A stretch of DNA of 32,000 bases, taken from contig NC_014833.1 of the NCBI RefSeq assembly GCF_000179635.2, positions 750,001-782,000 of the forward strand, read 5' to 3'. This DNA comes from Ruminococcus albus 7 = DSM 20455. GTDB taxonomy: Bacteria; Bacillota; Clostridia; Oscillospirales; Ruminococcaceae. The notes below the pieces were generated by a model. The model ran no database searches and was not told the DNA's origin. It worked only from the letters and a program-made list of their open reading frames with translations. Positions 4,039 to 19,104 of the stretch are shown here, one piece after another (positions within the stretch are counted from its first letter, which is position 1; every line of letters begins with the position of its first letter). Made by a program: the position numbers and the translations under genes.

Positions 4039-4113
4039 GGCCCGTTGGTCAAGAGGTTAAGACGACGCCCTTTCACGGCGTAATCATGGGTTCAATTCCC
4101 GTACGGGTCACCA
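4039..4113 (+). tRNA. tRNA-Glu (anticodon UUC), CCA encoded; attachment site of the downstream IMEs
   Basis: Hand-folded: acceptor GGCCCGT/ACGGGTC, 3-bp D stem GTC/GAC, anticodon stem ACGCC/GGCGT with loop CTTTCAC, T arm ATGGG-TTCAATT-CCCGT, A plus CCA. Total 75 nt. Confidence 0.93.
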
Positions 4114-4174
4114 TTCAACGTTCTCGGAAACAGCGTAATATCGCCGTTTCCGAGTTTTTCTTTTATAGTGAAAA
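4091..4174 (+). repeat. attL of IME-1: tRNA-Glu 3' end (23 nt) plus downstream terminator; copy 1 of an ~84-bp direct repeat
   Basis: 4091-4113 (TTCAATTCCCGTACGGGTCACCA) is identical to 19607-19629. The repeat continues through the terminator to about 4174 / 19691 with 3 substitutions (4114 T/A, 4119 C/T, 4168 G/C). Confidence 0.85.
4123..4164 (+). terminator. Rho-independent terminator after tRNA-Glu (lies inside the att repeat)
   Basis: 9-bp stem CTCGGAAAC/GTTTCCGAG (4123-4131 / 4146-4154), 14-nt loop, then TTTTTCTTTT. Confidence 0.7.
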
Positions 4175-4181
4175 TCCGCTT

Positions 4182-4202
4182 TGTTCTTTATCTGTTCTTT
4201 AT
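4182..4202 (+). repeat. Direct repeat TGTTCTTTAT x2 (candidate integrase arm-type sites, left arm of IME-1)
   Basis: TGTTCTTTAT at 4182-4191 and 4193-4202. The same pair recurs near the right end at 19469-19489 in the same orientation. Confidence 0.45.
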
Positions 4203-4231
4203 TTTGAAAATGCGGAGGTCTGAGCCGTAGG

Positions 4232-5422
4232 TCAAGCACCTTTCGGCTCTTTTTTCTTGCCTGAGAAATCGAGTGCCGAGCTGACAGCATCGGAGACTTT
4301 CGCTCTGGATTCTTCCAACATATGACAATAAATATTACTTGTTGTAGAAACCGTCGAATGTCCTAACGCTCCCGAAACGGTCACGATGTCCACTCCCTGA
4401 TTGACGAGGAGTGAAGCGAACAAGTGACGGAAGCTGTGCAAGCCGTAGAACGGAAGGTCGTGCTTCTCGCAAAACTCACCGAGCCAGAAATAAGGAGTGC
4501 CGTTCTGCATAGGTTCGCCGTTCCATTTGACATACAGACGGTCTGTTTCCACCCACTTGTCACCGCATTTGAGCGCCTGCTCGTCCTGTTCTGCCTTGTA
4601 CTCCCTCAGCATATCCATGATCGCCTGCGGAAATTTCAGCGTTCTCTGCGACTTGCGTGTTTTGGTTGTGTCGGTGTAAACGCCTTTCTTCGCCGTGTAG
4701 TTGCTTGTGCGGCGGACGCTGATGATGTTGTTCTCAAAATCCACATCTTTCCATTCAAGTCCCAGCATCTCGCCACGTCTGAAACCGCTGTATATCATCA
4801 AGTTAAAGAAAGTGCGGTACTTCAAGGGTTCATCGTTCAGCAGAGAAAGAAATCTCTGTACCTGTTCGGGCGTATAGATCTTCTTTTCCGTCTGTTCGTT
4901 CTTGGGGAGCGTGACCTTTGCACAGGGATTGTCGCTGATTACACCCATTTTCACGCCATAAGCGAACACATCGGACACGAAGCTGAGGTTATGCCTTATC
5001 GTCTTAGGGGCGAGTGGCTTGCCCGTGCGCTCGTTTGCACCCTCTTTCGAGAGCGAGTTCACGAAAGCCTGAATCTGTCTCGGCGTGATCTTGTCCATTC
5101 GGAGATGACCGATAGCGGCATACACCCTCTTGCGGAGTTGAAGCATACGTTCATATGTTGTGTTGCGGAGATTTGGCTTTGCATACTCCTCAAACCACTG
5201 TTCAGCAAACACCTCAAACTTGATAGCCTTGCTCTGATAGCCCTTGTTGCAGGCTTCCTCAAACATGACCGCCTGACGGTTCAGCTCTTTTTCGATCTGC
5301 TTTGCTGTCATTTTCGGCTCGGGTTTCCACGTCATGGACCGGATCACCTGCTTGCCTTTGCTGTCGTAGCCACAGCTAACCCTGATAGAGTAGCTGTCGC
5401 CACGTTTCTGAATAGTTGCCAT
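4232..5422 (-). CDS. int: Tyrosine recombinase / phage-type integrase of IME-1
   Basis: Catalytic blocks ...SGFRRGEMLGL..., HSFRHLFASLL and GHSTVSTTSNIYCH (R, H-x-x-R, Y). I start at ATG 5422 (MATIQKRGDSY..., RBS GAGGAGG), by analogy with the IME-2 integrase (MATIKKRGDSY...), not at the track's 5464. Confidence 0.93.
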   Translation of the reverse strand: MATIQKRGDSYSIRVSCGYDSKGKQVIRSMTWKPEPKMTAKQIEKELNRQAVMFEEACNKGYQSKAIKFEVFAEQWFEEYAKPNLRNTTYERMLQLRKRVYAAIGHLRMDKITPRQIQAFVNSLSKEGANERTGKPLAPKTIRHNLSFVSDVFAYGVKMGVISDNPCAKVTLPKNEQTEKKIYTPEQVQRFLSLLNDEPLKYRTFFNLMIYSGFRRGEMLGLEWKDVDFENNIISVRRTSNYTAKKGVYTDTTKTRKSQRTLKFPQAIMDMLREYKAEQDEQALKCGDKWVETDRLYVKWNGEPMQNGTPYFWLGEFCEKHDLPFYGLHSFRHLFASLLVNQGVDIVTVSGALGHSTVSTTSNIYCHMLEESRAKVSDAVSSALDFSGKKKEPKGA

Positions 5423-5469
5423 AATATGTACCTCCTCGGTAAATATCACAGCGTACCTTTTCAATACAT

Positions 5470-5498
5470 ATTGTAGCGCAATATATCGGCGTTGTCAA
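5470..5498 (-). promoter_or_regulatory. Candidate integrase promoter (P_int, IME-1)
   Basis: On the minus strand: TTGACA (5498-5493), 17-nt spacer, TACAAT (5475-5470). It is bracketed by a perfect 12-bp inverted repeat at 5448-5459 / 5497-5508. Confidence 0.5.
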
Positions 5499-5536
5499 GG
5501 TACGCTGTAACATTTTTTCTCTTGTTCTATCTTGTG

Positions 5537-6982
5537 TTATTCAAGTCCCCACGATTTTTTCTTTTTAGTGGGCTGGTATTCTATCTGTTGTGCCTGCTCT
5601 CGCTGACGCTGTTCTTTTTCTTCCTGCACCAACGCTTTCGCCTGTCTGAGAATATCGGGTGCTATCCTTTCAAGCATTGAATACACCTCGCTGTATCTCC
5701 TGTTTTCGGACTTGACCGTTTTCAACTCGGAAGAAAGACCCGAATTTTCTTTTCTGACAGCATTCAGCTTCTCACGAGCTTCATCACGCTCGGCGATAAA
5801 CTCATCACCACGCTTGTGCAGACTGAAAATGGTGCGGTCTGCTTTGCGCTGCCTCTCCATAGCTGTTTTCGTAAGGCTCTTCAAAGTGTCTATCCAACTG
5901 AGGATAGAATCCTTGTTCCTGAGTATTGACATACCGCTTTTCAGCAGTTTGTCGAGTTCCGATACGGCGACAAGATATTCGTGTTCATCATCAAAGTTTT
6001 TCTCCATATCAGGAAGATAGGTCAATGCCTTATTGACCTGCTCGATCTTTTGTGACAGCTTGGCATCTGCCTTTTCGGTTTCTTCTGTCACCGAGGACAG
6101 CTTTTCCTCGCTTTCGGAAATATCTTTCTTTGTGTCTTCCAGCGTGCTTTCAGCCGACTTCACTTTGTCCTCCACGGCACTCAGTTCGGACAGCTTCATA
6201 TCTATCAGCTTGTCGGCTGCGTCAAGTTCCTCCTGACGCTTTTTCAGCTTGAATTCTTTCAGCGGCAGACCCTCTTTTGCTTCTTCCAGCTTCACCCATT
6301 CGATACCACGTTCCAGCATTAGCTGACCGATGTGAACCTTCTCCTGTTCGAGCCAGTCTATCGTGATCGTCCTGCTGATACCTTTGCTCTCACAGCCCTG
6401 CTGACGTAAAGCACCCGTCAGAGAGTTTCGGACACGCATTCCGTTCTTTCTTTTCTCGTCGGTCACAGGCACAAAGTCAAGGTGCAGGTGGGGCGTGCTT
6501 TCGTCCATGTGTATCACGGCATTGAACAACTTCAAATGGGGATTTCTCTCCTCAAATGAACGGGCATATTCTTCCAGAACAGCCGCCGCTTCTTTGCACA
6601 TTTCGGAGTCCACACCCGTATCATCACGGTTGCCGACCTGGAACAGAACTTCATAGAATTCTTTCTCCTGTCGGCTGTGACGGATATGCTCCTGATAGTT
6701 TGCAATTTTCCTGTCACGCCTTGTCTGTCTTGCGTTGAATTCTTCCAGCGCTTCATCGAACAGATCGTGATAGAGTTGTTTGAGAGAACGCTGACAAATT
6801 ATTATGTCATCGGCGATTTTTTCTTTATCTACATTCGCCGTGATTATCGAGCGGTTGTTGTGGTTCAGATCACCCTTGCCGATACAGCCGCTCAGGGTTC
6901 TTTTTACGATAATATCATCTCCTAAATCATTGATACCGCACAGCGGTAAAAGGCTATTCGCCAACTGCCGACGGAGCGGCAT
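5537..6982 (-). CDS. mob: MobV/Pre-family relaxase (plasmid recombination enzyme type), long coiled-coil C-terminus
   Basis: Has the HMDESTPHLHLDFVPV (HxDE..PHxH) motif and N-terminal GKGDLNHNNR. The start is uncertain. The track ORF reaches 7069 but would then cover the oriT-like region. ATG 6982 has no RBS. Alignment to the IME-2 relaxase plus an AGGAGA at 6923-6918 suggests a non-canonical ATT/ATC start near 6913-6908. Confidence 0.88.
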   Translation of the reverse strand: MPLRRQLANSLLPLCGINDLGDDIIVKRTLSGCIGKGDLNHNNRSIITANVDKEKIADDIIICQRSLKQLYHDLFDEALEEFNARQTRRDRKIANYQEHIRHSRQEKEFYEVLFQVGNRDDTGVDSEMCKEAAAVLEEYARSFEERNPHLKLFNAVIHMDESTPHLHLDFVPVTDEKRKNGMRVRNSLTGALRQQGCESKGISRTITIDWLEQEKVHIGQLMLERGIEWVKLEEAKEGLPLKEFKLKKRQEELDAADKLIDMKLSELSAVEDKVKSAESTLEDTKKDISESEEKLSSVTEETEKADAKLSQKIEQVNKALTYLPDMEKNFDDEHEYLVAVSELDKLLKSGMSILRNKDSILSWIDTLKSLTKTAMERQRKADRTIFSLHKRGDEFIAERDEAREKLNAVRKENSGLSSELKTVKSENRRYSEVYSMLERIAPDILRQAKALVQEEKEQRQREQAQQIEYQPTKKKKSWGLE

Positions 6983-7143
6983 ATATATTGAAGCCTGCAC
7001 AGCAGGCAATCGGTGCGCAGCACCGAAAAATTCGGCAGGAGCCGAATTTGCTTCTGTTACTCTTGGCAAGAGTAACGCAAAGACACTTCCGACAGCCGAG
7101 CGACCGTCTATCAGAAGTGTCTATTGCGCCCTGCGGGGCTGAA

Positions 7144-7170
7144 CGGCTGACAAAGCAGCCGAAAATGTGG
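7144..7170. other. Candidate oriT core of IME-1 (hairpin plus conserved AAAATGTGG)
   Basis: CGGCTG-ACAAAG-CAGCCG hairpin (7144-7161) followed by AAAATGTGG. GCAGCCGAAAATGTGG is conserved at the same position upstream of the IME-2 relaxase (22507-22533). Confidence 0.45.
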
Positions 7171-7233
7171 ACACAGTAATGCGAAAAACGCATTACATAA
7201 ACTCAAAAAATGCGATCAGCAAAACTGCAAAAA

Positions 7234-7416
7234 TCAGAACGTCGGCTCTTCCTCAACACCAAAAGTTTCGAGGAGATGATCTATCTCTTTTCTGTAAGTC
7301 GTAAGCTCATAAGAATTGAGATAGAAAAACGAACGAGCAACAGCTTCACGCACATCAAGACCGCTTCTTTCTTCAAGGATAGAAGTCAGCGCTTTTACCT
7401 TTTCCATATCGACCAT
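7234..7416 (-). CDS. Small conserved IME backbone protein (60 aa), function unknown
   Basis: RBS GGAGGTG. The start lies 3 nt after the upstream HTH gene's stop. A positional homolog exists in IME-2 (22596-22769), sharing the ...RSGL..R(D/E)A.AR... core. Confidence 0.6.
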   Translation of the reverse strand: MVDMEKVKALTSILEERSGLDVREAVARSFFYLNSYELTTYRKEIDHLLETFGVEEEPTF

Positions 7417-7419
7417 ATC

Positions 7420-7716
7420 TCACACCTCCCTCCCGTTGAAATAGGCGATCAAGTCAGCCTTGTTCACAAGGATTTTTCCATTCCTGCCCTCGCCTGTGCG
7501 GACAGACTTCACCTTGCCCTGCTTCACAAGCTGACGGACGGTGTGTTCGGAGAGTCCGCTGATGAATGCGGCGCTCTCCTTGATAGTCAGCATCTCCACC
7601 TTGTCGGTAGTCGGTGCTTTGGTTGTCTGCGGAGCGGAGTTCTCTCCGTCCTCGGTGAGCTGAATGAGCAGCTCCAGAATGTTGTCTACGATTGCTTTTT
7701 TCTGTGTTGTAGTCAT
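7420..7716 (-). CDS. xis: Excisionase-family helix-turn-helix DNA-binding protein
   Basis: C-terminal ...MLTIKESAAFISGLSEHTVRQLVKQGKVKSVRTGEGRNGKILVNKADLIAYF matches the MerR-like excisionase HTH pattern. A close paralog sits in IME-2. Confidence 0.72.
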   Translation of the reverse strand: MTTTQKKAIVDNILELLIQLTEDGENSAPQTTKAPTTDKVEMLTIKESAAFISGLSEHTVRQLVKQGKVKSVRTGEGRNGKILVNKADLIAYFNGREV

Positions 7717-7818
7717 AAATTAAACCTCTTTCTTTCTACGGTTTGTGTTTTATGGATTTTGGGATTTTTGCACCTTTTGCATCTCAAAAAGCCCAAAAGG
7801 TGCAAAAGACAGATTCCC

Positions 7819-9279
7819 TTAACTGAAAACGTGCGGATTGACCTCAATATCGGTCACGGTTTTGTTGTTTGAGCCCTTGCTTGTAAAACGGCGAAGATAG
7901 CCGTATTCTTCCAGCATATCTATCGTTTCGTTAAAGTCCTGAGCGTTTTTGAACAGGGTGCATCTGCAAAGGTGGTGCAGATTGTTTTGCCTTATCTTCG
8001 TGATATGTTTTGAGCGTATTTTGGCAAGTACCCTCTCGGCTTTGACGGTTGCAAAGTCAGTGTCACCCAAGCTGTAAGCATATATCGCCTGCTCTCTGAA
8101 ATACTCGCCGATCTCAATTGCGTTGCAAAAGGTGTCCAGATCGACACGAACTTCAACAGGGTCAGAGCCGTTCAGCGCACATTTTATGCAGTGAATAATA
8201 CCGCACAAACGCAGGATAAGTCCGTGATATTTTCCGCCCCAATCCTTGCAGAAAGCCATATCGGTGACAAGCTGAGGTTCAATGTAATTGTTGTAGTAGT
8301 CAACGAACTCGCCGTAAGCCTTGCCGTCGAAGTGGAGATATTTCTCCATGTCGCTGTGGAAAGTAAACTTATCCTGCAACAGCTTGTATGTCAGATTTTT
8401 GTAGTTTTCGATGACCGCTTCGGGGACAGCCTGCGTGTCATACTTTCGTGAGCCGATATTGCTTTTCGGGAAACAGTACAGAAAACGTGCAATAAGTCCG
8501 CTGCCACGAAATGCCGTGTTGTTTATCATGCTGTCGAACACATAGGGCTGACAAGCAAGGCAAACGCTCATGTAAGGCTTTTTGAGGACAATACTCGCTC
8601 GTGTCGCTCTGTCGCTGATGAACGTTTCGCCGTTCCAGCACTTCAAAAGCAGGTCAATGTTGGGAACGTTGTTGCTGTAACGTCCGCTGAAATTACCGAG
8701 CATTCCTGCTTCATCGGAGATCATCAGCAAGGTGTTATTTTCTTCAAGCAGACGTACCAGCGATTCAGGTGTAACATCGTCCACCGCTATCCTGCGGAAG
8801 TTGCTCTGAGGGATATTGCTGAGGTCGGTTTGCAGCTTGGCTATCTCCTCGGCAGTAACATCATCTTTCTTTTCAAGAGCGAGCATCTTGCTTTCCAACA
8901 GCTTGCGTTCAGCCTGCGACTTGAAAATATCCTGCTTGTTGCTCTCGTTCCAGTCGTGGGCGAATGTGGCGTAGGGACGCTTCACAAGAGAAATAACAGG
9001 CGATTTCTTAAAGCTCGGCTCTGCAACGGTTAGGGAGTAAAGCACCAGTGGCTCGGTGTGGTCACGCTTGGCAGACATTCTGTAAACTCCCGAAAAGCAG
9101 TAGCTTACCGCCGAGAGTATGGAAGTTCCTGCCATTGCAACGTCTGTTGAGGTTGTAGTCGCTATCGCCTGTGCCATGTCTCCTATAATAGGCGGCAGAG
9201 CGTTCACAGGGAACAGCAGGAGGTTTGTCCCGTCGGGACGGAGGGGTGTGGGGGTTGCCCACAGTGTTTCATTGTTCAA
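7819..9279 (-). CDS. DUF3987-like protein (putative replication/primase-helicase-associated IME protein)
   Basis: 486 aa with a TTG start at 9279 preceded by AAAGGACGA. It has a close paralog in IME-2. The family assignment comes from memory of DUF3987-type proteins on Firmicutes/Bacteroidetes mobilizable elements and is not verified. Confidence 0.75.
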   Translation of the reverse strand: MNNETLWATPTPLRPDGTNLLLFPVNALPPIIGDMAQAIATTTSTDVAMAGTSILSAVSYCFSGVYRMSAKRDHTEPLVLYSLTVAEPSFKKSPVISLVKRPYATFAHDWNESNKQDIFKSQAERKLLESKMLALEKKDDVTAEEIAKLQTDLSNIPQSNFRRIAVDDVTPESLVRLLEENNTLLMISDEAGMLGNFSGRYSNNVPNIDLLLKCWNGETFISDRATRASIVLKKPYMSVCLACQPYVFDSMINNTAFRGSGLIARFLYCFPKSNIGSRKYDTQAVPEAVIENYKNLTYKLLQDKFTFHSDMEKYLHFDGKAYGEFVDYYNNYIEPQLVTDMAFCKDWGGKYHGLILRLCGIIHCIKCALNGSDPVEVRVDLDTFCNAIEIGEYFREQAIYAYSLGDTDFATVKAERVLAKIRSKHITKIRQNNLHHLCRCTLFKNAQDFNETIDMLEEYGYLRRFTSKGSNNKTVTDIEVNPHVFS

Positions 9280-9480
9280 CGATCGATCATCGTCCTTTCG
9301 TTTGATATTTTATAAAGCGCTTTATAATAGTTGCGGTCAACATGAGGTATGTTGTTCCGCTGTCAGCTTTCTTTCTCTTGCTGACATGAACATTGTACCA
9401 TACGAAACGATAGCAAATCAAACGTAATTCGTATATACTGTAAAATATACGGTAAATTTTAAAAAAATACGCAAATAGTC

Positions 9481-9509
9481 TTGACAAGATACCGTATCAA
9501 GCGTATAAT
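9481..9509 (+). promoter_or_regulatory. Promoter of the Cys-rich backbone ORF (IME-1)
   Basis: TTGACA (9481-9486), 17-nt spacer, TATAAT (9504-9509). Flanked by the 12-bp inverted repeat TCGTATATACTG / CAGTATATACGA (9429-9440 / 9510-9521). Confidence 0.6.
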
Positions 9510-9557
9510 CAGTATATACGAATATATAAGTTATCGTATCAAGGGAGAGGTTGGAAT

Positions 9558-10553
9558 ATGCTGTTATACCGTATAAATGAAAAAGACCGCACCGTGAGTA
9601 TCGTGTGGTCTATCAATAAAAATGAACTTCTGTCGGCTTCTGAAAAAGAAAAGGTCTATACGTTTGATGAGATACTGTCCCAGCTTGAAGATTTTCGCAA
9701 CAATCGCAGTGAGATATTTGAAAATCTCCGTATCACTATGATGAGCGGTCTGAACGAGCGTATCAAGGTTCAGGATCTTGTAAAAAATGTCGGGTCTGCT
9801 GTTATCCAAAACAGTGACAACGTATTTTTCAAGTATTACAGTAATCTGCTTACGGTAGCTTATATGAACATCGGTGAGCCTATCCTGATGCCGAAGGACT
9901 ATGTCAAGGAGAGATTCAACCATAAAAAGTTGGTGGAAACGGCAAGAGCTGAGCTTCAGAAGCAGTTTGACGAGATATTGCAGGCTATGAACGATGAGCG
10001 TAATTTTGACTACTCGGCTACGGGAGAAATACTGGTCGCTACTCAGAGGTCACAGCTTGCTGTCATTCGCACCGAGAACACCAACATCGTGTATCGTGTT
10101 GCCGATAAACCGCTGCTCACTTTCTTCTATGAATTCAGTTTCGCAGTGTTTAATGCCGGACTTAAAGTTTGTGAGTGCAGGTTCTGTCACCGCCATTTTC
10201 TTGGGACGGAAGAAGCTGTGTGCTGTGAACGTGAAGAATGTCTTGCTGAAAATAAAAGGCTGAAAAATCAGATGATAAGGGAGAAACGTAAAAACAGCGA
10301 CTACACTCGTGACATGGATAATTACACCGCCTATGTCAGAAATAAGAAAAAAGATTTGAGGATAGCCAAAGTCAGCCCATACGTCATGGACGAGTTTGAT
10401 GATCTGAAAAAGAAATGCAAGGCTGTCGTTGACAGCAAGCTGGCGGAATGTGTTGAATTCGGATTGCCTGTTGCAGAGCTGGCTCATACGATCGAAGAAC
10501 AGGAAGCTGTTATCAAGGCTTTCAGGGATAAGGCGTTGGCGGAGAATAGGTGA
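9558..10553 (+). CDS. Conserved IME backbone protein with Cys-rich (zinc-binding-like) motif, function unknown
   Basis: 331 aa, RBS GGGAGAGG. Motif CECRFCHRHFLGTEEAVCCEREEC. The IME-2 paralog (24905-25924) shares YRINE.DRT and CECGFCHKLFLGTEGEVCC. Confidence 0.8.
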   Translation: MLLYRINEKDRTVSIVWSINKNELLSASEKEKVYTFDEILSQLEDFRNNRSEIFENLRITMMSGLNERIKVQDLVKNVGSAVIQNSDNVFFKYYSNLLTVAYMNIGEPILMPKDYVKERFNHKKLVETARAELQKQFDEILQAMNDERNFDYSATGEILVATQRSQLAVIRTENTNIVYRVADKPLLTFFYEFSFAVFNAGLKVCECRFCHRHFLGTEEAVCCEREECLAENKRLKNQMIREKRKNSDYTRDMDNYTAYVRNKKKDLRIAKVSPYVMDEFDDLKKKCKAVVDSKLAECVEFGLPVAELAHTIEEQEAVIKAFRDKALAENR

Positions 10554-10627
10554 TGAGGGAGACTTTGATTCCGGTGGATCCAAAGTTACAATTTAATGAA
10601 AAATGGCGGAAATAATAGCCGAAAGCA

Positions 10628-10656
10628 TTGATCTTTAGCTCTCTTTGTGCTATAAT
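10628..10656 (+). promoter_or_regulatory. Cargo promoter of IME-1 (extended -10)
   Basis: TTGATC (10628-10633), 17-nt spacer, TGcTATAAT (-10 at 10651-10656). The block TTGTG(C/T)TATAATGTAA(A/T)TTGGA is conserved at 26007-26030 in IME-2. Confidence 0.6.
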
Positions 10657-10705
10657 GTAAATTGGACATTGATAACTATAATTAGGCTGTTTTAGGGTGA
10701 TTGAA

Positions 10706-11584
10706 ATGTACACAACTGTAAAACCTTTTATAAAGTGGGCAGGCGGCAAAAGCCAGCTTCTTGAAGAAATAAGAAAGAAATACCCTGCCAAGATCGAACG
10801 TTACTGTGAACCGTTTGTCGGCGGCGGAGCAGTGCTTCTTGATGTGCTTGCAAATTTTCAGCCAAAGGAAGTGCTGATAAACGACATCAATCCCGAACTG
10901 ACAAATACCTATATTCAGGTAAGAGATAATGCTGAAAGTATTATTGCCACACTTTCAGAGATGCAGGGCGATTTTTGGGATATGAATGATGAAAAGCGTA
11001 AAGAATACTTTTATTCTCAGCGAGAGCGCTTTAATGAACTTATAAAGCAAAGTGCATCGACTGAAGAAAAAGCTGCTTTATTTATTTTTATTAACAAGAC
11101 TTGCTTTAACGGACTTTATAGAGTCAATGGCAAAGGGCTGTACAATGTTCCTATGGGGGCATATAAAAAACCGCCTATTTGCGATGCTGAAAATATTCGC
11201 ACAATAAGCGAACTTCTAAAAAGAGTAGACGTTCACTGCGGCGATTATAGTGAATGCGAATCATTTATTACTGATAATGCTTTTGTCTACATAGATCCGC
11301 CATACCGCCCATTGAATGCAACTTCATCTTTTACCTCTTACGCCAAAACAGAGTTCGGCGATGAACAGCAGATACAGCTTGGACATTTCATTGAAAAGAT
11401 TTCTGAAAAGGGTGCTAAGGTTGTAGCGAGTAATTCTGATCCGCATAATACAGATGAAAATGATAATTTCTTTGATGATATTTACAAGATGTTTTTCATC
11501 GACAGAGTTGCCGCTACAAGAATGATAAACAGCAAATCAAATGGTCGAGGAACAGTTAGCGAACTGCTGATTTGCAATTATTAA
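10706..11584 (+). CDS. Dam/DpnM-class N6-adenine DNA methyltransferase (GATC-type, alpha class)
   Basis: PFIKWAGGKSQLL, EPFVGGGAV (motif I) and VYIDPPY (motif IV) occur in Dam order. I prefer ATG 10706 (RBS AGGGTGA) over the track's GTG 10697. Confidence 0.9.
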   Translation: MYTTVKPFIKWAGGKSQLLEEIRKKYPAKIERYCEPFVGGGAVLLDVLANFQPKEVLINDINPELTNTYIQVRDNAESIIATLSEMQGDFWDMNDEKRKEYFYSQRERFNELIKQSASTEEKAALFIFINKTCFNGLYRVNGKGLYNVPMGAYKKPPICDAENIRTISELLKRVDVHCGDYSECESFITDNAFVYIDPPYRPLNATSSFTSYAKTEFGDEQQIQLGHFIEKISEKGAKVVASNSDPHNTDENDNFFDDIYKMFFIDRVAATRMINSKSNGRGTVSELLICNY

Positions 11585-11600
11585 AGGAAGGAGGATTTCT

Positions 11601-11774
11601 ATGCCTTACGGTGAGTACGCAGAGTGTCCTAATTGCGGAAAAACTGCTCATGGTGAAGATGAGATTGAGGAACTGTTTGGATACAGAAATATGGGCGACG
11701 GTCGCACAATACCTCAGTCGTGGTGCCGTGATTGCAGAAGCTCCGGTGGACATGATGACGATGATGATGAATAA
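11601..11774 (+). CDS. Small zinc-ribbon protein with poly-acidic tail (57 aa); not in the ORF track (below cutoff)
   Basis: My translation: MPYGEYAECPNCGKTAHGEDEIEELFGYRNMGDGRTIPQSWCRDCRSSGGHDDDDDE*. Strong RBS AAGGAAGGAGGA lies 6 nt upstream. It has CxxC...CxxC pairs and sits between the methylase and the endonuclease. Confidence 0.6.
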   Translation: MPYGEYAECPNCGKTAHGEDEIEELFGYRNMGDGRTIPQSWCRDCRSSGGHDDDDDE

Positions 11775-11867
11775 TCATCTGTTCGGATTTTGAAGTGACT
11801 GTTGGCAGCAATCATTTGATTCTGCCAACAGTTTACACCTTAATAACGTATAGGCAAGATAATCAAA

Positions 11868-12725
11868 ATGAAAAGAGATTTTAACGAATGGCTCGGTAAA
11901 TTCAGAGACAGTATAGCGAACTATGAATACTATATTGACTTTGCAAAGGTACATAAAAACGTTGACAGCATAAAGGTTGAACTTAATATTCTGAATGCCT
12001 TAATCGGCTCAAAGGATATTGAAAACGAGTTTATGCAGATAGTAAGCAAGTATCCCGAAACGCTGAAATGTATTCCTTTGTTGCTTGCTGTCAGGGCGAA
12101 TGAAATATATGCAATAGACGGTGACGGGGAATTCTCTTATAACTTCAAGAAGATGAACTACTCTCCCGAACAGTACACTGTATTTATGCGTAAAACAGGC
12201 TTGTTTGAGCTTATGGAGAAGCATATTATCCACAGCCTGGTCGATTATGCAACAGGTGTGGAAACAGGTCTTGATTCCAACGGAAGAAAAAATCGTGGCG
12301 GACATCTCATGGAAGATCTTGTTGAAAGCTTTATTGTTAAGGCCGGATATATCAAGGGTCAGAATTATTTCAAGGAGATGTACATTCACGAAATAACCGA
12401 GAAATGGGGCATCGACCTTTCTGCTATATCCAATCAGGGCAAGGCGGAAAAGCGTTTTGACTTCGTTATCAAGACCGAAAATATGATTTATGGTATTGAA
12501 ACAAACTTCTATGCAAGCGGTGGTTCAAAGCTGAATGAAACTGCAAGAAGCTATAAACAGATAGCACAGGAAGTTGATACCATTGACGGATTTACGTTCG
12601 TATGGTTCACCGACGGCAAGGGCTGGCAGAGCGCAAGACGTAACCTCGAGGAAACGTTTGATGTGCTGGATACGGTTTATTCGATTGATGATTTAGAGAA
12701 AGGAATCTTAAAAGAGGTGCTATAA
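11868..12725 (+). CDS. DpnII/MboI-family type II restriction endonuclease (GATC)
   Basis: Recalled DpnII (dpnB) similarity runs along the whole length: FNEWL...YYIDF.KV.KNV.SIKV.LNI.N.LIGSK, GVE.G.D.NGRKNR.G, RFDFVIK, NFY.SGGSKLNETARSYK, W.TDG.GW. The RBS is weak. Confidence 0.88.
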   Translation: MKRDFNEWLGKFRDSIANYEYYIDFAKVHKNVDSIKVELNILNALIGSKDIENEFMQIVSKYPETLKCIPLLLAVRANEIYAIDGDGEFSYNFKKMNYSPEQYTVFMRKTGLFELMEKHIIHSLVDYATGVETGLDSNGRKNRGGHLMEDLVESFIVKAGYIKGQNYFKEMYIHEITEKWGIDLSAISNQGKAEKRFDFVIKTENMIYGIETNFYASGGSKLNETARSYKQIAQEVDTIDGFTFVWFTDGKGWQSARRNLEETFDVLDTVYSIDDLEKGILKEVL

Positions 12726-14443
12726 TGAACATTCAGGTTAATAGAGTTGCTGGAAAACTTAAAGAATTATTTGCTGGTAAAATAGATTTATCAGATGTTA
12801 ATGGTGACAAAGATAAAGCGTTCTTATCACGGTCGTTAGCGTTATATGGCATAATGATGAACACAGACAGTGATGTAGACACTGTAATTCAGTCATTAAC
12901 AGATGGATATCATGATAATGGAATAGATGCTGTTTATTGTGATGACGATCAAAAAACAATGTATTTAATTCAATCAAAGTGGAGTAATGATGGCAATCAT
13001 TCTATTTCTCAAGGAGATACTTCTGTTTTTATTTCAGGCATTTCAAAACTCATAAATGGTGATTTTACAGGTTTTAATGAAAAATTTGAGCCGTTAAAAG
13101 TTTTTATAAATAATGCGATTTTATCTACAGATTATAAAATCAGAGCGATTATAATATATACTTCAAATCAAAAATTTTCAGATGAATGCCAAGAAGTTAT
13201 GCGTTCGTTTGTAGATAATACTAACGATGGAATTGAAATAATAAGCTATGAAGTTATTCAATTGAAAGATATCTATCAATCATTGGCAGATAAAATTAAC
13301 CGAACAATAATGTTGGAAAACGTCGGACTACAAGATTATGGTATTTTGGAAAGAAATGAACAAGAGATTGGGTATTATGGTAAAATACCAGTTAGTACAA
13401 TTGCTAATTGGTGGAAGGAATACGGAACATACCTGTTTTCCAAAAATATTAGGTACTATAAAGGTGATACTGAAGTAAATGCAGGTATAAAATCGGTTTT
13501 GATGAATGAACCAGAGAACTTTTTACTCTTCAATAACGGTATAAAAATAGTTGCTGATAAAATAAATAAAGCCCCATATGGATCTAATGGACGTAAATTT
13601 GGAGTTTTTTCTTTAGAAAATGCAAGTATAGTTAATGGCGCTCAAACCACAGGGTCTATCGGTGAAATGCTTTCCAAAATGCAAGAAAGTATTGAAAATG
13701 CTTATGTTTTAATACAGATGATAAGCTTAGAATCATTAGCAACTGATATGAACGATAAAATCACAAAGTATTCAAATACACAAAATAGGATTGAGAACAA
13801 GGATTTTGTTTCTTTAGATCCTAATCAAAGAAAACTACAACAAGACTTTGCTATGGAAGGTATTGAATACTACTATAAATCTGGCTATACAATTAAAGAC
13901 GAAGAAAAAAGCTGTAGTATTGATGATGTTGCCATTGCTATCGGTTGTGGCTTAAGTAATGTGGCACTTGTTGGTACAATCAAAAGCAATTATGGTAAAA
14001 TCTTTGAAAAAATAGACAAACCCCCATATACTGAAATTTTCGGCACTAAATACTCCACATATTTTATCTGGAATAATATTCAAATATATCGTATTTTTGA
14101 ATCAATAAACACAGATTATCAGAAAAAATCCAATAAATTACATAAGTTAATTAGTGTTCATGGAAATAGATTTTTATTGCATATATTTCTAAATGTTTTT
14201 TCGATGAAAAATAACTTAAATTCATGTTTCTTAACAGAAATAGCTCTTGATGATTTGAGAAATGATATTAGAAAGAACTTACCGCTTATCATAGACCAAC
14301 TTGTCGAAATTAAAAACAAAGATTTTACTGATTCTTATCCTGCTAATATTTTTAAAAATGGTAAAAGATGTGAAGAATTGTTTGAGAAGCTTAGTCAAAC
14401 TGATATATATATATCTATGCAGAAACAGGATGTAATGGTCTAA
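12725..14443 (+). CDS. AIPR-family abortive-infection protein
   Basis: 572 aa with GYHDNGIDAVY...LIQSKW and IVNGAQTTGS blocks typical of AIPR. The ATG overlaps the endonuclease stop (TAATG), and its own stop overlaps the next ATG (TAATG). It is visibly more AT-rich than its neighbours. Confidence 0.78.
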   Translation: MNIQVNRVAGKLKELFAGKIDLSDVNGDKDKAFLSRSLALYGIMMNTDSDVDTVIQSLTDGYHDNGIDAVYCDDDQKTMYLIQSKWSNDGNHSISQGDTSVFISGISKLINGDFTGFNEKFEPLKVFINNAILSTDYKIRAIIIYTSNQKFSDECQEVMRSFVDNTNDGIEIISYEVIQLKDIYQSLADKINRTIMLENVGLQDYGILERNEQEIGYYGKIPVSTIANWWKEYGTYLFSKNIRYYKGDTEVNAGIKSVLMNEPENFLLFNNGIKIVADKINKAPYGSNGRKFGVFSLENASIVNGAQTTGSIGEMLSKMQESIENAYVLIQMISLESLATDMNDKITKYSNTQNRIENKDFVSLDPNQRKLQQDFAMEGIEYYYKSGYTIKDEEKSCSIDDVAIAIGCGLSNVALVGTIKSNYGKIFEKIDKPPYTEIFGTKYSTYFIWNNIQIYRIFESINTDYQKKSNKLHKLISVHGNRFLLHIFLNVFSMKNNLNSCFLTEIALDDLRNDIRKNLPLIIDQLVEIKNKDFTDSYPANIFKNGKRCEELFEKLSQTDIYISMQKQDVMV

Positions 14444-15186
14444 TGAAAAAAATCAAAAAATGGGAGCCCGATGATTTTGAACTTGAAATGACTACTCACT
14501 GGTCATTTCCGAAGCGTGGGGATTGGGCAACCCACGATGCTAAGTGGCGTGGCAACTGGTCGCCATATATACCGAGAAATATCATTCTCAGATATTCGCA
14601 GGAAGGCGATTTAGTTCTTGATCAGTTTGCGGGCGGAGGTACAACCCTCGTCGAAGCTAAGCTGCTCAACAGAGATATAATCGGTGTTGACTGCAACGAT
14701 GAAGCACTCACACGCTGCCGTGAAAAGATAGATTTTGACTATCCTCCTGCACATGGCAAAGTGTTTTTGTATAAGGGCGATGCTCGTGATTTATATTTTC
14801 AGAGTGACGAGTCTGTTGACCTTATTTGCACCCACCCGCCCTATGCTGATATAATCAAATACAGCGATGGAATACCGGAGGATTTATCGCAGCTCAAAGT
14901 AAAAGACTTTCTTGAAGCTATGAAGCCTGTTGCAGCTGAGTGTTATCGTGTGCTGAAAAAAGGAAAGTTCTGTGCAGTGCTTATGGGCGATACACGTCAA
15001 AAGGGCTGTATGATACCTATGAGTTTTGACGTGATGAAGATATTTCAAGAAGCAGGATTTACGCTGAAAGAGCTTATCATCAAAGAACAGCATAACTGCA
15101 AAGCAACGGGATATTGGAAAACCAACAGCGTTAAGTACAATTTTCTGTTGATAGCACACGAATACTTATTCGTATTCAGAAAGTAA
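14443..15186 (+). CDS. Small DNA methyltransferase (N-4/N-6 methylase domain) with motif I before motif IV and no obvious target-recognition domain
   Basis: 247 aa. VLDQFAGGGTTLVEAKLLNRDIIGVD (AdoMet motif I) precedes DLICTHPPYADII (motif IV with His in the first position). Translationally coupled to the AIPR gene and followed by a strong terminator. Confidence 0.8.
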   Translation: MKKIKKWEPDDFELEMTTHWSFPKRGDWATHDAKWRGNWSPYIPRNIILRYSQEGDLVLDQFAGGGTTLVEAKLLNRDIIGVDCNDEALTRCREKIDFDYPPAHGKVFLYKGDARDLYFQSDESVDLICTHPPYADIIKYSDGIPEDLSQLKVKDFLEAMKPVAAECYRVLKKGKFCAVLMGDTRQKGCMIPMSFDVMKIFQEAGFTLKELIIKEQHNCKATGYWKTNSVKYNFLLIAHEYLFVFRK

Positions 15187-15197
15187 ATAATGGTTTT

Positions 15198-15234
15198 AAG
15201 CCGTATGTTTCACTATATGTGAAACATACGGCTT
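15198..15234 (+). terminator. Rho-independent terminator after the second methylase
   Basis: Perfect 16-bp stem AAGCCGTATGTTTCAC / GTGAAACATACGGCTT with loop TATAT, followed by TTAGTTTTAT. Confidence 0.75.
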
Positions 15235-15330
15235 TTAGTTTTATGTTATAATTATCATAGAGAAAGGGTGAGCGATGTGTTGTTTGAATCGGACGAAAAA
15301 TTGTATGCGGTTATCGGCAAAAATATAAAA

Positions 15331-16353
15331 TATGGTTATCCCTTTAACACACCACAAGTAAGATCACTGCACCAAAGCAGCCAAAAGCCTTAAATACGCA
15401 CTGTTTCCCAGCTTACGACGGTTGAATTTGTAGCAGTATTCGGCAGCATATAACGCTGTGTGGATCTTTTCGTTTCCGTGGTAAGTTCCCATGATCATTG
15501 CTTTGAAGTTTGATATAACTTTATGCATCCAGTTCAGCTGACCGCTTGTCGGATCATATGTTTCAAAAACATGGAAGTATTTCTGTGCCAACGGTTTCTT
15601 GTAACTTCGAGCATTATCACTCTCGATCTTCGAGCCTGCGCGGATATTATCCCTGGCAAATCTACCAACAGTTATACCCTTTAAATTCGGCACATCGCTC
15701 ATTTTAACGTACTCGGGATTTCCTGCTGCGTTCTTTGACAAAGCTACTATCATCTTGACTTTTTCAGTTCCTCTGCCACGCTTTTTACCGTGAGTCGGAG
15801 CACCGAGATACGTGTCATCAAGTTCAACGATCCCGTCAAGCAAATAGCGTTCTTCACGGCATTTCATAGCTTTTCTGATGCGATGAAGGATGTACCATGC
15901 AGTCTTGTAGGTCACCCCCAAAGACCTCATCAGCGTAACAGCAGAAACGCTGCATTTGTTGCTCATAATGAGGAATGCGGTGACTATCCACAGTCTGAGC
16001 GGAATATGTGTTCTGTGCATAAAAGTTCCGTTTGTGGCGGATATATCTGCTTTACAGAACTTGCATCGCAGCAGATGGCGTGACCTTATCCTGCGGTACT
16101 CAGAGCCACCGCAAAACGGGCAGGCAAAACCCTTTTCAAAGCGGATATCAAGCAGAAAATCCTTGCAAAAGCTTTCATCTGCGAACTTTGAGTATATCCC
16201 ATCAAGTGTGATCTCAGGTTTCGGAAATCTTTTTGACATAGCGACAGCTCCCTTCGGTTTCTGTCACTATTATACTATATTTTCTGAGTTTTGAGGTCTG
16301 TTTATTTGGACAGCATTGTAAATTATCTGTGGTGTGTTAAAGGGATAACCATG
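15331..16353 (-). mobile_element. IS1595-family insertion sequence, copy A (1023 bp)
   Basis: Terminal inverted repeats ATGGTTATCCCTTTAACACACCACA at both ends. 8-bp target-site duplication ATATAAAA. Single transposase ORF. Confidence 0.88.
15364..16239 (-). CDS. IS1595-family (ISXO2-like) transposase with N-terminal zinc ribbon
   Basis: 291 aa with CPFCGGSEY...CKFC zinc ribbon, VELDDTYLG and ESDNARSY DDE-type blocks. The translation is identical to that of 17013..17888. Confidence 0.9.
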   Translation of the reverse strand: MSKRFPKPEITLDGIYSKFADESFCKDFLLDIRFEKGFACPFCGGSEYRRIRSRHLLRCKFCKADISATNGTFMHRTHIPLRLWIVTAFLIMSNKCSVSAVTLMRSLGVTYKTAWYILHRIRKAMKCREERYLLDGIVELDDTYLGAPTHGKKRGRGTEKVKMIVALSKNAAGNPEYVKMSDVPNLKGITVGRFARDNIRAGSKIESDNARSYKKPLAQKYFHVFETYDPTSGQLNWMHKVISNFKAMIMGTYHGNEKIHTALYAAEYCYKFNRRKLGNSAYLRLLAALVQ

Positions 16354-16898
16354 ATATAAAAAAGTATAGGACGATTGCAGGACTAACACAAGTTCAGTTG
16401 TGTGAGAAAACTGGAATCAGTTTAAGCTATCTTACGAAACTGGAATCTGCTAAGTGTGATAAGAGTGTTTCTCTTTCTTTTCTTAACTTGTTAGCTAATA
16501 CGCTGAATGTTGATATTACTGTATTTTTCAAGGAGAGTGATTAACTATGCCAAGAACCCCGAATACACACGGCGGTGGAGCATTAACAAATGCAAATGGG
16601 TTGCATTTTGAACAGACTACTGACTTAGATGATGCTTTAATTAGAAAAGGATATAGCATTTCAAAAATAGGTGAAGTGTATGGTAATGGTATACATATAG
16701 GATTCAGCAAAAGAAAAAAAGATTTTAGACGATTTTTACAAGCAAACGGAGTGAATTTAAGTGTTAATTCAGATGCTTTAGAACCAGATGATGCTTTCAT
16801 AAACGTCAGAAATCAAACCGTATATATAATTGAAAAGAAATTCCAAAGTGTATCAGGTTCTGTCGATGAAAAACTTCAAACATGCTTATATAAAAAAA

Positions 16899-17921
16899 CA
16901 TGGTTATCCCTTTAACACACCACAGATAATTTACAATGCTGTCCAAATAAACAGACCTCAAAACTCAGAAAATATAGTATAATAGTGACAGAAACCGAAG
17001 GGAGCTGTCGCTATGTCAAAAAGATTTCCGAAACCTGAGATCACACTTGATGGGATATACTCAAAGTTCGCAGATGAAAGCTTTTGCAAGGATTTTCTGC
17101 TTGATATCCGCTTTGAAAAGGGTTTTGCCTGCCCGTTTTGCGGTGGCTCTGAGTACCGCAGGATAAGGTCACGCCATCTGCTGCGATGCAAGTTCTGTAA
17201 AGCAGATATATCCGCCACAAACGGAACTTTTATGCACAGAACACATATTCCGCTCAGACTGTGGATAGTCACCGCATTCCTCATTATGAGCAACAAATGC
17301 AGCGTTTCTGCTGTTACGCTGATGAGGTCTTTGGGGGTGACCTACAAGACTGCATGGTACATCCTTCATCGCATCAGAAAAGCTATGAAATGCCGTGAAG
17401 AACGCTATTTGCTTGACGGGATCGTTGAACTTGATGACACGTATCTCGGTGCTCCGACTCACGGTAAAAAGCGTGGCAGAGGAACTGAAAAAGTCAAGAT
17501 GATAGTAGCTTTGTCAAAGAACGCAGCAGGAAATCCCGAGTACGTTAAAATGAGCGATGTGCCGAATTTAAAGGGTATAACTGTTGGTAGATTTGCCAGG
17601 GATAATATCCGCGCAGGCTCGAAGATCGAGAGTGATAATGCTCGAAGTTACAAGAAACCGTTGGCACAGAAATACTTCCATGTTTTTGAAACATATGATC
17701 CGACAAGCGGTCAGCTGAACTGGATGCATAAAGTTATATCAAACTTCAAAGCAATGATCATGGGAACTTACCACGGAAACGAAAAGATCCACACAGCGTT
17801 ATATGCTGCCGAATACTGCTACAAATTCAACCGTCGTAAGCTGGGAAACAGTGCGTATTTAAGGCTTTTGGCTGCTTTGGTGCAGTGATCTTACTTGTGG
17901 TGTGTTAAAGGGATAACCATA
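16899..17921 (+). mobile_element. IS1595-family insertion sequence, copy B (1023 bp), inverted relative to copy A
   Basis: Same terminal inverted repeats as copy A. 8-bp target duplication TAAAAAAA (16891-16898 / 17922-17929). The transposase and even the antisense spurious ORFs translate identically to copy A. Confidence 0.88.
17013..17888 (+). CDS. IS1595-family (ISXO2-like) transposase
   Basis: Its 291-aa product is identical to that of 15364..16239. Confidence 0.9.
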   Translation: MSKRFPKPEITLDGIYSKFADESFCKDFLLDIRFEKGFACPFCGGSEYRRIRSRHLLRCKFCKADISATNGTFMHRTHIPLRLWIVTAFLIMSNKCSVSAVTLMRSLGVTYKTAWYILHRIRKAMKCREERYLLDGIVELDDTYLGAPTHGKKRGRGTEKVKMIVALSKNAAGNPEYVKMSDVPNLKGITVGRFARDNIRAGSKIESDNARSYKKPLAQKYFHVFETYDPTSGQLNWMHKVISNFKAMIMGTYHGNEKIHTALYAAEYCYKFNRRKLGNSAYLRLLAALVQ

Positions 17922-18109
17922 TAAAAAAATGCAGTATGAAAAACTTGTATCACAAATTGGATGTGATATTGTGTATACATATGTGTTAAGCGATTGGTTC
18001 AAGCAGGATAAGTATCGTGATGTATTAAACTATATACAGTATGTAGGTTGTTACTATTTTTTTAATGAACTACCATTAGATTTTTTAGGACTTTAAAAGG
18101 AGTATTATT

Positions 18110-18634
18110 ATGGCAGAACATCAAATCAACTTCAATTTTGATGCAGTTGGGGATAGGAATAAAGTCAGAATGGAAGTTGTTAATGAACTTTCAAAAGAAG
18201 AACCTGGTCAAGGTAAGAAAGATTTAGCAAGCAGATATACCTATTACGTCGAAACTCTTAATGACGGAAATAGGATATACCTTAGAAGACCTGCTAATCT
18301 TCATAATGGATTTGATTTTGTAGTTGGAGTTGAAAACATTAATTTCAATCCAAACGGGAGAAGACGCAGTTATCCAAAACATGATGACATTATTATTGAT
18401 CTAACAGAAAAGAAGAAGGAAAGTTCTAAGAAATATAGACAACTCTATTCGGTATTGGAGAAGGTATATAAATGTGAGTCAATAAGCGCAGATGAAATGT
18501 TTCTGACATTCAAAACCGGATTTACAACAGAATTGATCATTAAAACGTTAAAATGGTTGTTTATCGAGCAGGATATACGATATTGGAATTATTCCGGCAG
18601 AGATATGCTTTGGAACGCAATAAAAAACGTATAG
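18110..18634 (+). CDS. Hypothetical protein (174 aa), last gene of the disrupted C/R operon
   Basis: RBS AAAGGAG lies 7 nt upstream and the ATG is 14 nt after the endonuclease stop. I recognise no family. It contains ...YLRRPANLHNGFDFVVGVENI... and ...WLFIEQDIRYWNYSGRD... Confidence 0.7.
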   Translation: MAEHQINFNFDAVGDRNKVRMEVVNELSKEEPGQGKKDLASRYTYYVETLNDGNRIYLRRPANLHNGFDFVVGVENINFNPNGRRRSYPKHDDIIIDLTEKKKESSKKYRQLYSVLEKVYKCESISADEMFLTFKTGFTTELIIKTLKWLFIEQDIRYWNYSGRDMLWNAIKNV

Positions 18635-18645
18635 GAATATTAACA

Positions 18646-18671
18646 ACGGCTGCACCCGAAGGTACAGCCGT
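18646..18671. terminator. Hairpin between convergent genes (possible bidirectional terminator)
   Basis: ACGGCTG (18646-18652) / CAGCCGT (18665-18671) with a 12-nt loop. No clear U-tract. Confidence 0.35.
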
Positions 18672-18677
18672 CTGCTC

Positions 18678-19094: not shown

Positions 19095-19104
19095 ACCGTC
19101 CACC

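Follow-up and report, generated by a model that had tools for sequence, protein, structure and literature searches.

We analysed a 32,000-nt stretch of the Ruminococcus albus 7 (= DSM 20455) genome (NC_014833.1, positions 750,001–782,000; hereafter, the window), with positions counted from its first nucleotide. The window contains two related elements, A and B, which lie in tandem, both at the 3′ end of tRNA-Glu, and have the middle att repeat in common. Both are integrative mobilizable elements (IMEs) with the same backbone: a tyrosine integrase, a Mob_Pre relaxase, an open reading frame (ORF) of 206–220 amino acids (aa), a DUF3987 protein and a Cys-rich ORF of 331 or 339 aa; the identity of the backbone DNA of A and B is 68–75%. 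Downstream of the Cys-rich ORF lies a slot for variable cargo; two backbone genes converge on it, and the 3′ hairpin of each delimits it on one side. This slot is a defence-gene hotspot on a widespread family of tRNA-Glu-integrating IMEs of Ruminococcus and other Oscillospiraceae, and its left edge is formed by a short palindrome that is probably a docking site for a ParB protein. The features of the slot and its flanks are as follows.

9481–9509, + strand: promoter of Cys-rich ORF A, perfect consensus (TTGACA, 17 nt, TATAAT), 12/12 consensus positions
9558–10553, + strand: Cys-rich backbone ORF A, 331 aa, no known family
10561–10587, no strand assigned: palindrome (hairpin) A, 27 nt, GACTTTGATTCCGGTGGATCCAAAGTT, putative parS-like site at the left edge of the cargo slot
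10598–10612, + strand: GAAAAATrG.GAAA motif, between the palindrome and the -35 hexamer
10628–10666, + strand: predicted cargo promoter A, -35 TTGATC (10628–10633), 17-nt spacer, TG (10648–10649), -10 TATAAT (10651–10656), conserved block to 10666
10707–15186, + strand: cargo A, D12 (Dam-like) methylase, DpnII endonuclease, AIPR/AbiU-like protein and N6_N4 methylase (Pfam)
18646–18671, no strand assigned: right-edge hairpin ACGGCTGCACCCGAAGGTACAGCCGT, just 3′ of the convergent 141-aa ORF
18678–19377, - strand: right-flank backbone module, 141-aa ORF (18678–19103) and DUF6809 protein (19105–19377) (Pfam)
24905–25924, + strand: Cys-rich backbone ORF B, 339 aa, homologue of ORF A
25924–25950, no strand assigned: palindrome (hairpin) B, 27 nt, AACTTTGAATCCAGTGGGTTCAAAGTT, whose first base is the last base of the ORF B stop codon
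25990–26028, + strand: predicted cargo promoter B, -35 TTGCTT (25990–25995), 17-nt spacer, TG, TATAAT (26013–26018), conserved block to 26028
26070–32000, + strand: cargo B, Eco57I-like type IIG gene (26070–28423 and 29530–30248) and Eco57I-type methylase gene from 30250, past the window end (Pfam)

An earlier reading made from the sequence alone (hereafter, the sequence-only reading) had pointed to a near-identical hairpin and an extended -10 promoter block in both elements, followed by unrelated cargo, a DpnII/AIPR island in A and an Eco57I-like system in B. All the strings it quoted were found where it had placed them and are unique in the window. The 23-nt hairpin cores, CTTTGATTCCGGTGGATCCAAAG (10563–10585) and CTTTGAATCCAGTGGGTTCAAAG (25926–25948), have no third match in the window, and the 22-nt promoter blocks, TTGTGCTATAATGTAAATTGGA (10645–10666) and TTGTGTTATAATGTAATTTGGA (26007–26028), have no other match there even at two mismatches; each pattern was found in 0 of 100 shuffles of the window. 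The downstream genes also proved to be those described, and both cargo regions lie inside the elements. The proteins encoded by ORFs A and B are only 30% identical (E 1e-35), with a common CxC-x2-CH...CC-x4-C motif, and their DNA is hardly alignable; the short intergenic blocks are thus conserved beyond the gene itself. The Cys-rich ORF gave no significant match in Pfam, PHROGs or a PDB sequence profile search, and its AlphaFold2 model (pLDDT 80) had no Foldseek match in PDB at E <1. Its homologues (21 + 192) are common in Ruminococcus and in metagenome-assembled genomes (MAGs) of Oscillospiraceae. Like ORF A, ORF B is preceded by a perfect consensus promoter (TTGACA, 17 nt, TATAAT; 24846–24874), which suggests strong constitutive expression of the Cys-rich protein.

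The family was sampled by the Cys-rich ORF alone, in a profile scan with one genome per species, which yielded 46 loci (referred to here by L numbers), 43 of them usable. The hairpin lies 0–9 nt after the stop codon of the ORF, or overlaps it, in about 40 of the 43. Behind it, slots of 1.4–8.1 kb contain 109 protein clusters in about 25 cargo architectures, with 24 different first-gene clusters in 40 loci. Searches with Pfam and PADLOC recognized FokI, HaeIII, DpnII, BsuBI/PstI, Eco57I-type (IIG) and type I restriction–modification (R-M) systems, as well as McrBC, AbiA, GajA, MzaB/C, an AbiU-like AIPR protein and a TmtA/Mokosh-like helicase; in cargo A itself, the gene at 12725–14443 matches AbiU/MzaE in PADLOC. 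Almost all of the cargo consists of R-M or other defence systems, although several proteins have no annotation, among them a 638-aa protein of L013 and a DUF4116-Metallophos protein of L040. Variable content between conserved flanks and enrichment for defence genes are thus both seen, which bears out the proposal of the sequence-only reading that this is a cargo and defence hotspot on a mobilizable element. Turnover is rapid: backbones whose ORF is 91–98% identical to copy A hold three other cargos. The loci L006, L009, L036 (titled Alistipes) and L037 (titled Escherichia coli) are contigs with Ruminococcus-type IMEs; the Alistipes and E. coli contigs probably reflect contamination in MAG binning rather than the true host range.

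Both edges of the slot are sharp. On the left, among 357 pairs of loci with different cargo, homology that spans the hairpin stops 0–10 nt past it in 207 and 60–100 nt past it, just after the -10 hexamer, in 63, whereas in all 17 pairs with the same cargo it goes on for more than 400 nt. The check suggested along with the sequence-only reading, whether homology ends coincide with the hairpin or with the promoter, therefore came out positive for both. On the right, homology of element A with 15 or more loci resumes at 18639–18648, at a second, different boundary hairpin that the sequence-only reading had missed. This hairpin is unique in the window, had no match in 100 shuffles and is unrelated to the left palindrome. 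The 141-aa ORF that it follows is the best conserved IME gene, with 85–88% aa identity across sister IME subfamilies.

The cargo promoter is predicted to be of the sigma-A type with an extended -10: a TGnTATAAT sequence with a -35-like hexamer at 17 ± 1 nt is present in both copies. Promoter B is overlooked by a simple scanner because its -35 fits the consensus at only three of six positions. A conserved promoter as such, claimed in the sequence-only reading, is found in part of the family: a scaffold comprising a -35 TTGCTTTTTC, 17 nt and TGnTATAAT, 30–47 nt after the palindrome, is present in 19 of the 43 loci, but the exact 22-nt block is not family-wide, about 16 loci have other promoters and the AbiA loci have none. 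Hairpins and promoters were called automatically and then curated by hand; for the promoters, which a classifier had sorted, three AbiA loci that the classifier had given as 'other -10' on a chance match were corrected. The resulting classes are:

Class I, shared scaffold: 19 loci with about 12 cargo types; the scaffold belongs to the backbone
Class II, different promoter: about 16 loci; the promoter moves together with the cargo
No promoter, read-through: 3 loci (L016, L034, L041) with AbiA cargo
No promoter-like match: 2 loci (L018, L037), contig end near the hairpin
No hairpin: 3 loci (L020, L022, L029)

In an alignment of 18 class I loci with about 12 cargo types, the hairpin, the GAAAAATAGGTGAAAT motif, TTGCTTTTTC, the 17-nt spacer and TGnTATAAT can all be aligned, and the sequences diverge straight after the -10. 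A motif like GAAAAATAGGTGAAAT (10598–10612 in the window) stands 11–12 nt after the hairpin in 16 of the 40 hairpin-bearing loci. The same alignment contains a class with an 11-nt deletion, which shifts the spacing between palindrome and promoter by about one helical turn. Class II is exemplified by L002 and L027, which have the same promoter and cargo gene on backbones that are 30% identical. The AbiA cargo (a reverse transcriptase and a HEPN domain) starts with a ribosome-binding site about 30 nt past the hairpin and has no promoter of its own; it must therefore be read through the hairpin from the backbone ORF with its perfect consensus promoter. In 40 of 40 loci, the gene that opens the cargo points the same way as the promoter (+ strand), in agreement with the earlier suggestion of a promoter at a fixed position that feeds the slot.

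The palindrome has the 27-nt consensus AACTTTGA(W)TCC-NNN-GG(R)(K)TCAAAGTT; a literature search for its sequence returned only unrelated primer matches. Copy B folds into a stable hairpin (-13.8 kcal/mol, z -3.5), whereas the fold of copy A is weak (-9.6 kcal/mol, z -0.9) because of an internal 2 × 2 mismatch. In the 30 distinct versions of the palindrome, paired cells make up 93% and the changes are mainly one-sided; covariation weakly exceeds the shuffle controls (18/500 and 32/500) and does not discriminate between a function in RNA and one in DNA. Conservation extends to the nucleotide sequence of the outer arms, not to pairing alone, while the neighbouring ORF diverges to 30% identity.

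Several of these properties would suit a 3′ stem-loop of the backbone ORF, a weak terminator or mRNA stabilizer, with the slot edges then marking the limit of purifying selection between convergent terminators. The hairpin closely follows or overlaps the stop codon, its pairing is kept with many one-sided G.U changes and with one pair that shows four pair types, copy B folds well, and at the right edge, too, a convergent gene is followed by a hairpin, this one with a UUCG-type loop. We nevertheless regard this explanation as unlikely. An intrinsic terminator as the main function was rejected: there is no U-tract (only TT follows the stem), the stem is A/T-rich at its base and a terminator scan made no call. 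The same sequence occurs in frame inside parB genes and, in other contexts, immediately after a canonical terminator (both described below), and the AbiA cargo requires read-through. A 3′ stem-loop also leaves aside the retention of the outer-arm sequence next to a diverged ORF, and the apparent excess of G.T over A.C mismatches shrinks to 8 versus 7 when independent positions are counted.

The palindrome is far from confined to these IMEs. It was found in at least 124 DNA stretches (at least 120 metagenomic and 4 viral), with at least 135 strand-specific occurrences, all picked by pattern, so that the frequencies of its contexts are biased. Only 10 of 135 directly follow the Cys-rich ORF among the matches listed. 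Again among the matches listed, at least 28 copies have a fixed context in a CD1107-like conjugative-transposon backbone, at least 21 lie inside a ParB_N + HTH_ParB gene adjoining a ParA gene, and at least 12 belong to a sister IME group; further copies stand directly after canonical terminators (contexts U3, U4 and U7) and beside variable DNA. The sister IMEs have the same integrase, Mob_Pre, DUF3987 and 141-aa gene, and they keep the promoter scaffold, the defence cargo and the right hairpin, with a Cro/CI helix-turn-helix (HTH) gene instead of the Cys-rich ORF. The hairpin, which the sequence-only reading had placed downstream of the Cys-rich ORF, thus belongs to the slot and not to the ORF, even though it does follow that ORF nearly throughout the 43-locus sample. 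With respect to neighbouring genes, the palindrome occurs on either strand.

The sequence-only reading had also offered the hairpin as a candidate boundary or recombination site. As a boundary it holds, being the left edge of the slot. That it is a dedicated site for cargo insertion, either attC/attI-like or the target of an element-encoded recombinase, is in our opinion quite improbable. The very sharp junctions, 0–10 nt from the hairpin with about 24 different cargos, would be expected of such a site, and in other mobile genetic elements (MGEs) the hairpin also abuts variable DNA, the U3 and U4 flanks being combined with several downstream types and the D3 flank with several upstream types. 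Yet there is one copy per slot, the right edge being an unrelated hairpin; no recombinase gene is linked to the slot, the sole integrase being encoded at the other end of the element and targeting the tRNA. Of the context groups, the two largest (28 and 21 copies among the matches listed) are fixed and do not coincide with junctions, one of them being inside coding sequence. A second class of junctions falls after the -10 rather than at the hairpin, and the hairpin stays intact instead of being split into half-sites. The presence of the palindrome in parB and other contexts thus makes a dedicated recombination site unlikely and a parS-like site the better reading.

The association with parB is close. 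Hairpin B is identical (27/27) to the palindrome inside the parB gene of L170. When closer ParB homologues were picked by protein identity alone, all four had a palindrome at aa ~158–162; one had an IME-like variant, GACTCCGG-C-GGAGTC (L181), and one was altered on both outer arms. Among ten distant ParB homologues from annotated plasmids, seven, which are 31–42% identical and come from Subdoligranulum, Monoglobus, Acetoanaerobium, Enterococcus and Cohnella, have a 25–29-nt palindrome at the same codon region, in the part encoding the linker before the HTH. All seven conform to ACTT-N8-N-N8-AAGT, the inner bases being specific to the lineage; the remaining three of the ten, at 28% identity or less, have no palindrome at that codon region. 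The in-parB palindrome is thus associated with a ParB-family gene and co-varies with the ParB lineage, and in this it looks like a cognate parS-type site. The protein contains a GxxR motif (GHNR), and matches were obtained to the N-terminal domains of Spo0J, ParB and Noc and, weakly, to that of KorB. Its family comprises 4047 proteins and is abundant in Ruminococcus and Oscillospiraceae MAGs; a scan of viral contigs for relatives recovered the query's own contig only. The elements that carry it have the gene order integrase ... NikA/MobC, relaxase, single-strand-binding protein (SSB), ParA, ParB ... NYN, and the palindrome is often present a second time, some 5 kb further downstream. The lineage-specific palindromes in the parB genes of L172–L176, L179 and L181–L184 are candidate parS sites.

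The palindrome could alternatively be an operator for the cargo promoter that is bound by some other common protein, namely the TnpV-like 141-aa protein, the Cys-rich protein or the HTH protein. Its location some 80–95 bp upstream of the predicted transcription start would be suitable, and homologues of the 141-aa ORF, the best conserved gene of the IMEs, are found, at 35–37% identity, beside parB in elements resembling integrative and conjugative elements (ICEs), L170 (4001–4408), L072 and L181. However, the palindrome follows parB and not the 141-aa gene: the palindrome-bearing parB loci L172–L174 have no homologue of that gene within 6 kb. In addition, the gene upstream of the slot varies between IME subfamilies (Cys-rich or HTH_3) while the palindrome is constant, and the position inside parB is conserved across genera. 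We therefore consider an operator for one of these proteins a poor prospect. In a Pusillibacter plasmid, genes annotated as 'TnpV' and 'DUF6809' come right after parB (positions 2430–2968 of L177 belong to the same observation), and DUF6809 is at the same time the family of the second gene in the right flank of the IMEs; no homology between the 141-aa ORF and the Pusillibacter TnpV was detected, with no comparison aimed at it.

The remaining backbone features of the two elements are as follows.

4091–4113, + strand: attL core of element A, tRNA-Glu 3′ end TTCAATTCCCGTACGGGTCACCA; the same 23 nt occur again at 19607–19630
4232–9279, - strand: element A backbone, tyrosine integrase (4232–5464), Mob_Pre relaxase (5537–7069) and DUF3987 protein (7819–9279) (Pfam)
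7081–7165, no strand assigned: candidate origin of transfer (oriT) of element A, inverted repeat (7081–7122) and conserved GCAGCCGAAAATGTGG block, upstream of the relaxase gene
7210–7872, + strand: orf220 of the element A backbone
19607–19630, + strand: second copy of the tRNA-Glu 3′ end, serving as attR of element A and as attL of element B (tandem accretion)

The chromosomal segment in the window consists of tRNA-Glu (4039–4113), a PfkB kinase, ptsI and tRNA-Met; at the gathering threshold, Rfam detected the two tRNAs and nothing else across the window. Given the repeat of the tRNA 3′ end at 19607–19630, element A spans ~4091–19630 and element B, whose tyrosine integrase is at 19746–20927 (Pfam), runs from 19607 beyond the window end. 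The status of both as IMEs follows from a site-specific integrase, with att repeats that flank the insertion at a particular target, and from a relaxase of their own with no mating-pair apparatus; no type IV secretion gene is present among the ORFs of the fully contained element A. The same tandem arrangement is seen in contig CANQKD010000015.1 (L002 + L011).

Mobilizability, the G.T bias of the hairpin when cells are counted, and the presence of the palindrome near the relaxase/SSB leading region of the ParB elements could all be accommodated if the hairpin worked in single-stranded transferred DNA, as an oriT, a single-strand origin or a priming signal. This is very improbable. The layout expected of a MobV-type oriT, an inverted repeat and nick region before the relaxase gene, is seen not at the cargo-slot hairpin but at 7081–7165 in element A and at 22447–22530 in element B, in each case ahead of the Mob_Pre gene. 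The inverted repeat is conserved, with 22447–22484 as the conserved stretch in element B, and the GCAGCCGAAAATGTGG block, a 16-mer, is identical in the two, and together they are likely the oriT of these IMEs. The slot hairpin comprises only 27 nt, is followed by no conserved motif resembling a nick site and occurs on either strand relative to neighbouring genes.

Taken together, these observations point to a parS-like site, borrowed from helper elements, which stands beside the cargo promoter at the left edge of a defence hotspot; as a whole, this interpretation appears to us reasonably likely. The ParB-less IME would have copied the parS-type loading or binding site of relaxase–SSB–ParA–ParB elements from the same bacterial groups. 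A helper ParB bound at the palindrome could partition the excised IME, as in the case of SGI1 with its mimics of IncC parS, and might in addition influence the neighbouring cargo promoter, in the manner of the KorB and BisD clamps on RK2 and ICEclc. Judging from its sequence and from the universal co-orientation of the cargo, the promoter would transcribe whichever defence operon fills the slot. Cargo would be replaced by recombination between related elements, for which tandem copies such as those in the window offer an obvious substrate. The last sequences common to otherwise diverged elements are, on the left, the palindrome and, on the right, the second hairpin with the highly conserved 141-aa gene, so that the junctions of cargo swaps would fall exactly at these edges; where the two elements also have the promoter scaffold in common, the left junction falls right after the -10 instead.

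Several points weigh against this interpretation. Recognition of the palindrome by ParB is inferred from co-location and co-variation. The commonest IME variant, GATTCCGGTGGAGTC, differs from the commonest in-parB variant, GAATCCAGTGGGTTC, at two to three inner positions, so that cross-recognition cannot be taken for granted, even with the IME-like variant of L181. Hairpin A has the 2 × 2 internal mismatch; mismatched cells on the + strand are G.T in 54 cases and A.C in 9, which would suit a hairpin in RNA or single-stranded DNA; and the context counts suffer from the selection by pattern noted above. The activity of the cargo promoter and its transcription start are predictions only. Finally, the first entry of a wholly new cargo into the slot is not explained.

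A more far-reaching version, of which we are rather doubtful, would make the palindrome the loading site of a CTP-dependent ParB clamp of a helper ICE that both partitions the excised IME and switches the defence-cargo promoter, amounting to cross-element control of R-M and abortive-infection genes during transfer or establishment. With the site common to several MGE families, it would then also be a common joint for the exchange of defence modules between IMEs and ICEs of gut and rumen Clostridia.

Insertion sequences (ISs) are found in both cargos of the window. Those in cargo A are:

15330–16353 and 16899–17922, no strand assigned: inverted IS1595-family copies inside cargo A, 100% identical over 1024 nt (DDE_Tnp_IS1595)

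This pair sits just after the gene for the 247-aa N6_N4 methylase, and the 545-bp segment between the copies contains a fragment of a PD-(D/E)XK-like ORF (16547–16915); the pair may have truncated or rearranged cargo A. In cargo B, an IS (28424–29529; DDE_Tnp_1 transposase 28475–29443) interrupts the Eco57I-like type IIG gene. Intact versions of 1022–1024 aa are present in L006 and L007, and the alignment breaks at 28423/29530. Since the type IIG gene is split and the methylase gene from 30250 is untouched, restriction may be lost and methylation kept.

IMEs of this kind occur widely in Ruminococcus and other Oscillospiraceae of rumen and gut: their proteins fall into hundreds of clusters, of which some are seen on as many as 944 contigs. 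A slot bounded to the nucleotide by two short motifs provides a handle for mining defence systems in hard-to-culture bacteria: whatever lies between the two hairpins becomes a candidate for a role in defence. Should the palindrome prove to be a ParB site, centromere piracy of the SGI1 type would extend to Firmicutes, and a ParB-family site would lie directly at a defence promoter, which makes helper-controlled expression of defence genes testable. The lineage-specific palindromes inside parB would provide candidate parS sites for a large uncharacterized family of mobile-element ParBs (more than 4000 proteins). We know of no description of a ParB-type site juxtaposed with a cargo promoter.

The slot resembles an integron (Pc, attI and attC) in that a resident promoter serves promoterless or exchangeable genes and the cassette boundary is marked by a site that can form a hairpin. 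It differs in having no IntI by the slot, no attC for each cargo unit, multi-gene operons that often come with their own promoter and a hairpin that is not duplicated. An integron-like cassette reading was rejected on the grounds of a single palindrome per slot and element, an unrelated right edge and a sole integrase beside the tRNA att site. The location of the palindrome within the coding sequence of its own ParB gene has a parallel in Bacillus subtilis, where parS reportedly lies inside the parB/spo0J gene (Lin and Grossman 1998). Unlike the 16-bp B. subtilis parS, TGTTNCACGTGAAACA, the palindromes described here are 25–29 nt long, with the form given above, and the ParBs are those of mobile elements, not chromosomal ones.

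The ParB family also includes regulators of promoters on mobile elements. KorB of RK2 is a CTP clamp that regulates promoters from parS-like operators (PMC11790492), and the BisD-CTP clamp at bisS sites controls promoters of ICEclc (PMC12409273). In common with these, the IMEs have a putative palindromic ParB-family site tens to ~100 bp from a mobile-element promoter, and the ParB in question has a GxxR N-domain. Here, the likeness is one of sequence layout, any regulator would have to be supplied in trans from a different element, and no KorA- or BisC-type partner protein was identified. The closest parallel for partition is SGI1, which mimics the parS of IncC helper plasmids and for which ParB binding and stabilization have been shown experimentally (PMC10954446). 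SGI1, too, is an IME without ParAB of its own whose sequences match the parS of a conjugative helper, which allows it to hijack the partition system. However, SGI1 is gammaproteobacterial, whereas the present elements belong to Firmicutes, the link is sequence identity to a palindrome inside parB, and there is one copy per IME, located at the cargo promoter.

As for the slot itself, defence hotspots on integrative MGEs have been described in P2/P4, in SXT (hotspot 5), at E. coli integration hotspots and in pipolins (PMC10121019, PMC10201445, PMC11551731). Those hotspots and this one alike have conserved flanks and fast-exchanged anti-phage cargo on an integrative element, with R-M and abortive infection systems dominant. 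The differences are that the present hotspot belongs to a new element family in Ruminococcus and other Oscillospiraceae, that its edges are set within a few nucleotides by two short hairpins and that about half of the members have a backbone promoter, set at a fixed distance, to serve the cargo. Neither a defence hotspot on an integrative element nor the mimicry of parS by an IME is without precedent; what the elements described here add is a new family, from Firmicutes, whose slot is unusually well defined.

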